Shown here: in pieces, positions 345 to 3,063 of the stretch
Numbering within the stretch: the stretch's first letter is position 1
Layout: every line of letters starts with the position of its first letter
NCBI GenBank assembly: GCA_963775895.1
Contig: CAVZKL010000019.1
Location: 1 to 64,000, forward strand
Direction of reading: 5' to 3'
DNA: 64,000 nt
DNA from: Candidatus Bathyarchaeota archaeon
GTDB lineage: Archaea; Thermoproteota; Bathyarchaeia; Bathyarchaeales; Bathycorpusculaceae
Translations under genes and position numbers: made by a program
Notes under the pieces: model-generated
What the model saw: the letters and a program-made list of their open reading frames with translations, nothing else
Told to the model about the DNA's origin: nothing
The model's database searches: none

Positions 345-410
345 TTGAGGTCGATGATGTGAAGAAGAGCCGTCTGATTTGTGACGACATCTAAAAGACT
401 GAGGCTTCAA
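345..410 (+). ncRNA. box C/D 2'-O-methylation guide sRNA (double guide, 23S rRNA PTC region)
   Basis: 8-bp terminal stem TTGAGGTC/GGCTTCAA; C box ATGATGT 354-360, D' CTGA 374-377, C' GTGACGA 381-387, D CTGA 399-402; T-tract downstream at 417-428. Confidence 0.85.
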
Positions 411-428
411 AATCACTTTTTGATTTTA

Positions 429-851
429 TCAATGCTTGCGGGGCAAGTGTACTTCTAACATTCCCTTTTTGTAATTGATGATCATCTTCTTCATGTACAC
501 CGGAACCGGTACGCGTAGCTGGCAATGGTATTTCTGAAACTCGCCTTTGATATGAGTCACTCCGAGATCGTTGAGTTTGACTATCTTGTTCATCTTTGCT
601 GTTATCTCAAGAGAGCTACTGCCCAAGGGTTTGACCTTGACACCAGCCTTGTTTGTGAAAGGCAAATCAACTGTCACCAAAACTTCCTTCGGCTTCACCA
701 CCATTTCCCGCAAGGGTTCTAATGAACATTCACGCAAGTCCCAGCTTGGTCTTTCCCCAAAAGTGCCTCCAACCCGTTGAGTCCACCCTTCCAAATCTGC
801 AAAGTATTCGTCAATAATTTCTGACAATGATCGTCTTCTTCTTATCGCCAT
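429..851 (-). CDS. Hsp20/alpha-crystallin family small heat shock protein
   Basis: MAIRRRRSL...VTVDLP...YKKGMLEVHLP alpha-crystallin pattern; own ATG at 851 with SD-like GGGAGG upstream. Confidence 0.8.
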   Translation of the reverse strand: MAIRRRRSLSEIIDEYFADLEGWTQRVGGTFGERPSWDLRECSLEPLREMVVKPKEVLVTVDLPFTNKAGVKVKPLGSSSLEITAKMNKIVKLNDLGVTHIKGEFQKYHCQLRVPVPVYMKKMIINYKKGMLEVHLPRKH

Positions 852-865
852 TTCCCTCGTCCTCC

Positions 866-1613
866 CTAAGAAACGTACATTGGAATGTCCAGTTCTTGGG
901 GCTTCTTCATCTTGGACATCTCTTCCTGTGTTCTCTTCATCACGTCTCGTCCTCTGAGTCTGATTTCTTCTCCTTTCGCCAAGAGTTTTGCCACGTCTAC
1001 CTTGACATCCTGTGATCTTTTCAAGTTCTCTCAGTACTTCAGCGGCTGCTTCTGGGTCTGGATAATTGTAGAAACATTGAGCAAGCAGAGCAAGGGCAGG
1101 AACCCCGTTGTCTGAAGCTCTCTGCAGCATGATTGCTTGAGTCCCGACAATGTACCCTTCCGTCAAGATCTCTATCTGCTTGTCCTCAGCTATTTTCAAT
1201 GCTTCCGGACTTGAGGCGGCGGCAAATCCCTTCAATTCCTTGATGTCTTGTCGGTCCTCAACAGGAATTCCGCCCAAGGAAACCATCATCTTGATTTTCT
1301 TGCTTCGTCCCCATTCTATCAACCCATCCATTATTGGGTAAACTGCCTCTGCGGGCACAGGGGCTTCAGAAATTACCAAAAGAAGGCTTCCACCTGCGAA
1401 GATCCTAATTGAAGAATGAGGCAAACCTTCGTGAAGAACGACGAGCGGCGGCAACAGAGTTGAATCCAAATATGCCACTTCCTCAAGTTTCAATTCCTCA
1501 ACGAGATGCGCGGCAGCTATAACGCCCACGAGCCCAACGTCAGGAAAACCGAAGACCAGTGTTGTTTCGGGCGGAATCTTCTTTTTCTCGATGATCTTCA
1601 CTTGTTCATCCAA
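866..1613 (-). CDS. PAC2-family proteasome assembly chaperone (one frameshift ~1008)
   Basis: GFPDVGLVG, YPDPEAAA; shifted frame gives VKVDVAKLL...ELDIPMYVS* ending at 866. Confidence 0.85.
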
Positions 1614-1728: not shown

Positions 1729-3063
1729 ATGTCTCTTGAACACTTAGGCTCTTCACTCTACGATGCTTTGAAGAAGGTCTTCAAAGCCTCTGTCGTCGAT
1801 GAGGCAACTGTCAAAGAGCTCGTTCGCGACATTCAAAGGGCTCTGCTTCAGGCAGACGTGAACGTGCAACTGGTCCTTGACATCTCCAAGCGAATAGAAG
1901 ACAGAGCGTTAAAGGAGAAAGTTCCTCCAGGGATATCACGACGCGAACACGTGATAAAGGTTGTTTATGAAGAGCTGACCCGTTTTCTCGGCGACAAACC
2001 CGTCCCGTTGAAGGTTGAGCCTGGAAAAAGAAAAATAATAATGCTGGTGGGCATTCAGGGTTCCGGAAAAACTACTGCTGCCGCCAAGCTTGCACGGTAT
2101 TTCCAGAAGAGAGGACTGAACCCTGCCTTGATTTGCGGGGACACTTTTCGTCCAGGAGCGTACGCGCAGCTTCAACAGCTTGCAAGCAGAATAAATGTTC
2201 CCATTTACGGTGACCTGAAGGGAAAAGATCCTGTCAAAGTCGTCAATGAAGGTATGAAACAGTATAGCGACAAAGACTTGATCATAGTTGACACTTCAGG
2301 CCGCCACAAAGAGGAGAAGGAATTGATCAAGGAAATGAAGATGCTTGAGAAGAGCATCAAGCCGGACGAAGTCATGCTTGTGATCGACGGAACGATCGGA
2401 CAGCAAGCTCTCGTTCAGGCAAAAGCCTTCAATGAGGCGACTCCAATAGGGTCTATCTTGGTAACAAAGCTAGACGGATCAGCCAGGGGAGGCGGGGCTC
2501 TCTCTGCCGTTGCAGCCACGGGGGCACCTATCAAATTCATAGGTACAGGTGAGAAAACTGAGGACATTGAGGCCTTTGTGCCGTCTCGTTTCGTTGGCAG
2601 ACTGCTGGGAATGGGCGACTTGGAAACGTTGCTGGACAAGGTAAAAGAAGCCGAGATAGTCGTTCCCGAAAAGAAAGCCAAAGCAATGATGAGCGGAAAA
2701 TTCACCTTAACCGACATGTACGAGCAGTTCGAAGCCATGAAAGGCATGGGCACCTTCAAGAAAATCTTCAAAATGCTTCCAGGAATGTCTTACAACATTC
2801 CAGACGACATGCTCAACATGGCTGAGGGACGCCTAGAAAAGTGGCGCGTGCTCATTCAATCGATGACACCTGAGGAAAAAGACAACCCCAAAATGTTCAA
2901 TTCCTCCAGAATAAAGCGCGTTGCCAGAGGCTCTGGCACGACTGAGAAGGACGTGAAAGAGCTTCTGAAACAGTACATAATGATGCGACGAATGCTCAAG
3001 ACCATGCGAAGAAAAAAGAAATTCCCCTTCTTCGGAAAAGGAATGCCGATGGATATGCAGTAA
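1729..3063 (+). CDS. srp54: signal recognition particle protein SRP54
   Basis: GIQGSGKTT, DTSGR, TKLDGSARGGG, Met-rich M domain. Confidence 0.97.
   Translation: MSLEHLGSSLYDALKKVFKASVVDEATVKELVRDIQRALLQADVNVQLVLDISKRIEDRALKEKVPPGISRREHVIKVVYEELTRFLGDKPVPLKVEPGKRKIIMLVGIQGSGKTTAAAKLARYFQKRGLNPALICGDTFRPGAYAQLQQLASRINVPIYGDLKGKDPVKVVNEGMKQYSDKDLIIVDTSGRHKEEKELIKEMKMLEKSIKPDEVMLVIDGTIGQQALVQAKAFNEATPIGSILVTKLDGSARGGGALSAVAATGAPIKFIGTGEKTEDIEAFVPSRFVGRLLGMGDLETLLDKVKEAEIVVPEKKAKAMMSGKFTLTDMYEQFEAMKGMGTFKKIFKMLPGMSYNIPDDMLNMAEGRLEKWRVLIQSMTPEEKDNPKMFNSSRIKRVARGSGTTEKDVKELLKQYIMMRRMLKTMRRKKKFPFFGKGMPMDMQ

Follow-up and report, generated by a model that had tools for sequence, protein, structure and literature searches.

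A conserved box C/D guide RNA gene of Bathyarchaeia with one recognisable predicted target, the C2510 equivalent of 23S rRNA

The DNA analysed here, hereafter the window, comprises 64,000 nucleotides (positions 1-64000) of a bathyarchaeal metagenome-assembled genome (MAG) of 1.77 Mb, distributed over 28 contigs and 88.8% complete. Close to its beginning, at positions 345-410 of the forward strand, lies what we consider, judging from its sequence and that of its relatives, a genuine and conserved archaeal box C/D sRNA gene of 66 nt. Its two ends, TTGAGGTC (345-352) and GGCTTCAA (403-410), form a terminal stem of 8 bp, six of them Watson-Crick and two G-U. A single G separates the 5' strand of this stem from box C (ATGATGT, 354-360), which agrees with RUGAUGA at six of seven positions and departs from it only by its last base, a T instead of an A. 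The D' spacer follows (GAAGAAGAGCCGT, 13 nt, 361-373), containing the guide GAAGAGCCG (364-372), and then box D' (CTGA, 374-377), a linker of 3 nt, TTT (378-380), box C' (GTGACGA, 381-387), the D spacer (CATCTAAAAGA, 11 nt, 388-398) and box D (CTGA, 399-402). Boxes C and D, flanked by the 8-bp stem, can adopt the G-A/A-G, U-U and G-C arrangement of a K-turn, as derived by hand; the last base of box C lies outside these contacts with box D. In the middle of the molecule, CTGA, the TTT that closes the loop and GTGACGA, placed between spacers of 13 and 11 nt, supply the elements of a C'/D' K-loop. The minimum free energy (MFE) fold of the sRNA retains the terminal stem, with -14.3 kcal/mol and z = -0.71, a stability no greater than that of shuffled sequences. 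Such an unexceptional value is normal for box C/D RNAs and speaks neither for nor against the assignment.

Upstream of the gene there is a BRE/TATA-like element, CAACGTTTATTT (312-323, +), situated ~22-33 nt before the first base of the stem and including the TATA-like TTTATTT at 317-323. Of 20 homologous sequences, 19 have a motif of the TTTAT/TTATT type 24-30 nt before the aligned start; the promoter element, read by eye, is (A/C)AAnGTTTAT[TC]T-like and lies ~28 nt upstream. On the other side, a T-rich tract (TTTTTGATTTT, 417-427, +), with T runs at 417-421 and 424-427, immediately precedes the stop codon of the convergent gene and is a possible archaeal termination signal; T-rich tracts are also seen by eye 3' of the sRNA in most homologues of the same genus. 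An earlier note on this DNA had described the 8-bp stem, the four boxes with their spacing, the TATA-like motif and the T-tract, and all of these are indeed read in the sequence.

Both neighbouring genes lie on the reverse strand. The divergent one (51-254, -) codes for a hydrophobic protein of 68 aa without any Pfam family, and the convergent one (432-851, -) for an Hsp20-like protein of 140 aa. Of 20 loci, the window's own included, 16 have the Hsp20-like gene beside the sRNA, and the small hydrophobic ORF is likewise its neighbour in 16. The earlier note had named the convergent neighbour hsp20; its adjacency is conserved, but its identity remains below the Pfam HSP20 threshold (15.2 versus 20.8 bits). 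The region 429-1613 (-) is open over 394 codons in a single frame, in which no stop separates a PAC2 part from the Hsp20-like part of 140 aa. The PAC2-family domain (PF09754) scores 126 bits over residues 20-203, and for residues ~210-255 the tblastn matches of several relatives sit in another frame; the arrangement may represent a fusion, an overlap or a frameshift. The SRP54 gene (1729-3063, +) is found 1.3 kb downstream of the sRNA. ARAGORN detects no tRNA gene in the window. When introns are allowed, this program labels the intron-containing tRNA-Lys(UUU) (C17:46283-46379, in the window's own genome) and tRNA-Met(CAU) (locus L180, in a relative) as tRNA-Ser(aga); its tRNA counts are unreliable in this lineage, in which introns directly after position 37 are frequent.

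Individual boxes are short, and Rfam is silent at gathering score, so that one might see in this locus nothing but a chance arrangement of short motifs within an intergenic spacer. We give this reading almost no probability. When both strands of the whole genome were searched with a four-box regular expression allowing spacers of 10-14 nt, the sRNA at 345-410 was the sole match, against none in the reversed genome used as a control. A looser four-box pattern combined with a stem of 5 bp retrieved three sites in the genome versus none in the control. Two of these are additional C/D candidates, C13:37882 (+) and C17:14771 (+), the former with a canonical appearance: ATGACGA, 10 nt, CTGA, aaaa, ATGATGT, 12 nt, CTGA and a 5-bp stem. 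Three candidates of the loose pattern in 1.77 Mb suggest a small repertoire of guide RNAs. The proteins with which such RNAs form RNPs are encoded as a full set in the same genome: fibrillarin (C20:12237-12917, 329.7 bits), Nop5 directly beside it (C20:13039-13716, 256.4 bits) and L7Ae (C13:44948-45220, 103.4 bits).

The distribution of the sequence among relatives argues most clearly against chance. A BLAST search with 86 bases around the candidate as the query found homologous loci in 19 relatives, some of the same genus, others of the same family or of two further families; sequence and position are thus both conserved. These 19 and the window's own sequence make up alignment A1, and all 20 parse as C, D', C' and D with a stem. 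The boxes, whose loss in relatives the earlier note had named as grounds for giving up its reading, are kept in all 20: the TGA-G core of box C, the GTGA-G of box C' and box D are invariant, box D' is CTGA in 18 and CGGA in two, and the linker between D' and C' always measures 3-4 nt. Besides the box cores, A1 has invariant columns in the core of the stem and over a run of ten bases, GAAGAGCCGT, with which the D' spacer ends. These ten are unchanged in 20 of 20 homologues, with the two to three bases immediately 5' of them being variable, and the entire D spacer differs among the homologues, both in its sequence and in its length of 10-17 nt.

R1, a covariance model derived from A1, found matches in 42 of 151 sampled genomes of Bathyarchaeia, among them 14 of the 15 from the window's family. 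The 27 new matches form alignment A2, in which 21 sequences keep GAAGAGCCG, the other six being weak matches with other or decayed guides; C2510 is the position predicted by 20 of the 24 sequences of A2 that can be parsed. In A1 the terminal stem is 82.5% paired without any covariation, and 498 of 500 shuffles were paired at least as well. Fitting A2 to the model favours the structure; in this model-fitted alignment six of the seven stem pairs show compensatory changes, for instance GGCU/AGCC and GCCC/GGGC. Its covariation score was reached by none of 500 shuffles and slid controls were 31-51% paired, figures that likewise come from the model-fitted alignment. This pattern of conservation, with matches to the model across the class and compensatory changes in the stem, excludes a chance arrangement. 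Locus L054 (genome G129) has AATAACG in the place of box C, the guide GAAGAGTCAT and ATGA as D', and a synteny-level match to the model remains there; it is a probable decayed copy, i.e. a pseudogene. In loci L123 and L124 (G045 and G056), a GGAAGAGCCGG guide precedes box D after a long spacer and the guide on the D' side is different.

We also searched a sample of 401 genomes of the phylum with the pattern GAAGAGCCGNCNGA, which matched in 97 of them; beyond the class, the control with the reversed pattern gave matches about as often. Among the 38 matches inspected, those outside the class presented the D' guide in a C/D context only in G521, G490, G513 and G524. The locus of G524 (L125) carries an insertion of ~33 nt between D' and C'. 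A full-text literature search found no paper on C/D sRNAs of Bathyarchaeia, and no database family covers this gene in that class. It is previously uncatalogued, and at the same time it is an ordinary kind of gene with a standard mechanism. The earlier note's central claim, that the locus is a box C/D sRNA, stands on the anatomy, the conservation in 19 relatives and the sole four-box match of the genome.

The 23S and 16S rRNA genes of the source genome are absent from the assembly, so that what can be said about rRNA targets rests on relatives of the same genus (G001 and G009) and on more distant ones, nine 23S genes in total (six, including the two of the same genus, and three from further relatives). 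The guide GAAGAGCCG (364-372), which corresponds to guide positions 2-10 counted from box D', forms nine Watson-Crick pairs with CGGCUCUUC of these 23S rRNAs. This target (CGGCUCUUC / UCGGCUCUUCC) is identical in the nine genes, as is its longer context GGUACCUCGAUGUCGGCUCUUCC. The earlier note had proposed that the D' guide is complementary to 23S rRNA and aims at the equivalent of C2510, and on both points the comparison agrees with it: G369, which is base five counting back from D', pairs with the final C of UCGGC, and this N+5 cytidine is E. coli C2510 when a 23S rRNA of the same genus is aligned with E. coli rrlH, with no indels across 2492-2521. Guide position 1 (T373) is a conserved U that faces a U and stays unpaired. 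In solved structures of archaeal C/D RNPs, a duplex of 10 bp is the most that a 12-nt spacer can hold. Here the D' spacer measures 13 nt, not 12, and the duplex 9 bp; the deeper-branching members carry GGAAGAGCCGU and form ten pairs, at positions 2-11.

Complementarity between the D' guide and 23S rRNA, taken alone, is weak evidence for a target, as 36 of 200 shuffled D' guides reach a run of 9 bp somewhere in 16S and 23S rRNA. We call the target because the guide is invariant and because its conservation ends exactly where the complementarity to 23S rRNA ends. The D' guide has no match among the tRNAs predicted by ARAGORN. An alternative target of 10 nt, ACGGCUCUUC, which includes the base next to D', occurs at two other places of the genome, neither of them a recognised RNA gene. 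A box C/D sRNA is expected to have one guide or more that can pair with rRNA or tRNA and places its target at N+5, and here it is the D' guide that appears to fill this role.

The D guide is a different matter. In the earlier note it was supposed to pair with CUUUUAGAUG and to direct methylation at position 2499, so that the two guides of a double-guide sRNA would tile the peptidyl-transferase loop, with methylation directed to the equivalents of C2510 and 2499. Half of this is right, namely the D' half, and archaeal double guides with neighbouring targets are described as common in the available text of a review. However, where the D guide (CATCTAAAAG) should find CUUUUAGAUG, the 23S rRNA of the relatives reads ACCUCGAUG / UACCUCGAUGUCGG / ACCUCGAUGUCGG in nine of nine cases, leaving only GAUG and scattered pairs. 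The supposed pairing is therefore wrong for all nine, position 2499 has no basis as a target and the tiling disappears with it. The missing 23S rRNA of the source genome itself is unlikely to differ at this place, since positions 2497-2501 are near-universal. Nor is the D guide conserved, although that stretch of 23S rRNA is invariant, and its best rRNA match (eight pairs including two G-U, near E. coli 404) is at chance level, being equalled by 85 of 200 shuffles (with the rRNA of G001). Tiling by the two guides is accordingly an extremely improbable reading. Of the alignment to 23S rRNA that the earlier note had proposed for both guides, run on the relatives' genes, only the D' part thus gave a match.

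Other searches with the D guide had no better outcome. Neither 24 nor, subsequently, 35 tRNAs predicted by ARAGORN contained a convincing target, and the 30 near-matches with up to one mismatch found in the whole genome all lie outside any RNA-gene context. The D guide CATCTAAAAGA does not pair with the genome's own tRNA-Met (CCAGACUCAUAAUCUGG), and the pattern used found no other tRNA-Met guide in the source assembly. The D guides of the same genus resemble drifting versions of one another and are equally devoid of rRNA targets. A doubtful candidate is the anticodon loop of the intron-containing pre-tRNA-Lys(UUU) of the same genome (G000 C17:46283-46379): the D guide would form eight contiguous pairs, seven Watson-Crick and one G-U, with ACUUUUA|GG across the exon-intron junction, in the same manner as the D guides of deeper relatives pair with pre-tRNA-Met, and it could then be an ancestral tRNA-Met guide that has been retargeted. 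Yet N+5 falls on U35, next to the wobble base U34 and not on it; by a rough estimate, chance alone would yield about one such match in the tRNA set; and G005, G009, G001 and G008 keep nearly the same tRNA-Lys with D guides that do not fit. A tRNA-Lys target common to the genus is rejected by these four guides, and for the window's own we deem it unlikely. The D guide of this sRNA is probably an orphan, one that in this genus has drifted and lacks a target; the D arm may be kept only for the symmetric architecture of the RNP. Orphan guides are common, with 28% in six species of Pyrobaculum according to the available text of PMC6009581.

The history of the D arm can be followed elsewhere in the family. 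In other families of Bathyarchaeia the D spacer is CC[CT]TATGAGTG, and in G513, outside the class, AGATTATGAGTA. In G044, G054 and G058 (sRNA loci L051, L052 and L056), the D guide pairs with ACUCAUA|GGG of the elongator pre-tRNA-Met (L179, L180 and L181, respectively), extending three bases into the intron, and in G513 (L101) with ACUCAUAAUC of an intron-less tRNA-Met (L182). N+5 is C34 of tRNA-Met in all four. As the duplex of the first three runs into the intron, the precursor tRNA must be their substrate, and as guide and target change together (GGG versus AAUC), these D guides are very likely functional. The tRNA-Met targets were found by BLAST with the tRNA-Met gene of the source genome, pattern searches having given only places outside tRNAs. 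A target in the loop of helix 91 was considered for the CCTTATGAGTG guide of these relatives and abandoned in favour of tRNA-Met, the 23S rRNA of those lineages having GCAGCA there.

A third state is found within the window's family. In G016, G017 and G048 (loci L021, L015 and L057), the D guide AAACCCAGCG forms 10 bp with GCUGGGUUU of 23S rRNA and would address the equivalent of E. coli G2581, a residue of the peptidyl-transferase centre; in the copy of G048 the D' guide has diverged. Compared across these genomes, the D' arm is fixed throughout the class, and the D arm seems to have been either retargeted, from tRNA-Met C34 to 23S G2581, or abandoned. The family illustrates how guides may evolve, with one arm frozen across a class and the other one labile.

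Together, these observations lead us to propose, with a probability of about 0.8, that the sRNA directs 2'-O-methylation at the C2510 equivalent through its D' guide, its D arm being probably targetless; only one of the two guides appears to have a recognisable target. The sRNA of 66 nt would be transcribed from its own promoter, and L7Ae, Nop5 and fibrillarin would assemble on its C/D K-turn and C'/D' K-loop. Within this RNP, GAAGAGCCG would pair with the universally conserved CGGCUCUUC of helix 90, next to the peptidyl-transferase centre, placing the C2510-equivalent cytidine at the fifth position upstream of D', where fibrillarin would methylate its ribose. The short guide of 9 bp and the orphan arm could also be read in another way, in which the sRNA mainly acts as a chaperone of rRNA folding, or is a decaying gene, and the guide only tethers it to helix 90 without any methylation; a review, in its available text, discusses C/D sRNAs as chaperones. 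This is very improbable in our opinion, given that the four boxes, the spacer length and the register with a conserved C at N+5 are kept throughout the class and that the methyltransferase genes are present in the genome. The window's copy is, in addition, unlike the decayed one of G129, with its GAAGAGTCAT and damaged box C. Methylation of the C2510 equivalent through the D' guide thus remains our preferred reading. It implies that one particular ribose in helix 90 is methylated, that of the nucleotide that plants and animals methylate by means of U49/SNORD49, and it annotates a guide RNA gene in a major uncultured class of archaea.

In its general organization, this sRNA is much like the archaeal dual-guide sRNAs of Sulfolobus, Pyrococcus and Pyrobaculum (sR), with which it shares a length of ~60-70 nt, the order C/D'/C'/D, spacers of ~12 nt, a short terminal stem, a D'-C' linker of 3 nt and a promoter of its own. 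Its predicted target also falls, as for other archaeal sRNAs, within the methylation hotspot of helices 90-93 in domain V (available text of PMC7994747 and PMC4644070). Unlike them, it has a target for only one guide, and it comes from a Bathyarchaeia MAG from a wetland/soil-type sample. The available main text of PMC4644070, PMC7994747, PMC6009581 and PMC7758197 contains no site-level statement on methylation of the C2510 equivalent in archaea, supplementary site lists lying outside this search; in the papers searched we found no methylation data for this lineage. Rfam, against which the earlier note had proposed an Infernal search that included SNORD49, returned no family at gathering score for the whole window or the 20 homologous loci. 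In a permissive scan around the sRNA, the best score was that of sR14 (RF01145), with 19.8 bits against 38 and a different guide, and the plant snoR77Y came next.

The D guides of the deeper relatives have parallels of their own. Human SNORD97/SCARNA97 is the guide for Cm34 of elongator tRNA-Met, and in Haloferax volcanii sR-tMet reportedly guides this same modification. For sR-tMet, the available text of PMC6601510 cites Joardar et al. 2011. The D guides of the deeper relatives resemble both in addressing C34 of tRNA-Met, a complementarity that the window's D guide has lost.

For the D' guide, the closest parallel is eukaryotic U49/SNORD49, of which the sRNA would be a functional counterpart at the C2510 equivalent. 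Taking human Gm4499 to be the equivalent of E. coli G2553, the offsets from it and from Arabidopsis G2923 place human Cm4456 and Arabidopsis Cm2880 both at E. coli 2510. In the available text of PMC9941101, human 28S Cm4456 (old number Cm4426) is assigned to SNORD49A/B, and in that of PMC8053127, Arabidopsis 25S Cm2880 is assigned to U49 and G2923 is the Spb1 site. Hoeppner and Poole 2012 pair AtU49 Cm2869 with human U49 Cm4426 (PMC3511168, available text). The SNORD49 consensus (RF00277) has UAGGAAGUGCCGU followed by the D' box and, read on the rRNA CGGCUCUUCCUA, selects the same cytidine. The site and guide of U49 given in the earlier note were thus correct, according to both the human and Arabidopsis tables and the Rfam consensus.

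Whether this likeness reflects common ancestry is another question. SNORD49 (RF00277, clan CL00062) came third in a permissive Rfam scan of 151 bases, with 17.4 bits, E = 0.033 and a gathering score of 37, and the matches of the cmscan alignment are confined to the boxes, the guide core and part of C'; no similarity beyond boxes and guide that would point to common descent was found in it. The suggestion of the earlier note that the sRNA could be an archaeal counterpart of U49 therefore stands as regards nucleotide and register, but not as membership of the family (17.4 versus 37 bits). Because a shared target dictates the guide, identity of the guides cannot indicate common descent. One could imagine that an ancestral archaeal RNA carried a D' guide for C2510 and a D guide for tRNA-Met C34, later split over SNORD49 and SNORD97/SCARNA97, a scenario that we regard as quite improbable. 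Should guides with GGAAGAGCCG before D or D' prove widespread, above all if Asgard archaea have them at the same D' position and with a tRNA-Met partner, common descent would become likelier; a family limited to Bathyarchaeia and a few neighbouring lineages would rather speak for an independent origin. Archaeal counterparts are named for few ancient snoRNAs in the available text of PMC3511168, one of them being sR12, for SNORD43/snR70; U49 is absent from those named there. The bathyarchaeal sRNA adds a candidate archaeal counterpart of an ancient snoRNA, for which descent and convergence are inseparable.

Compared feature by feature, SNORD49 and the sRNA address the same rRNA nucleotide in the same register, both with a guide located upstream of D' and with a U next to D' that faces a U. 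In its guide core the SNORD49 consensus reads GGAAGUGCCGU, which is nearly identical to the GAAGAGCCGU of the sRNA. They differ in that the archaeal guide pairs perfectly at the place beside the target where the SNORD49 consensus forms a U-U mismatch, and plant U49 guides a second site, Cm1510/1518 (available text of PMC8053127 and PMC3511168), to which nothing in the sRNA corresponds. The archaeal sRNA, unlike SNORD49, possesses strong C' and D' boxes and its own promoter.
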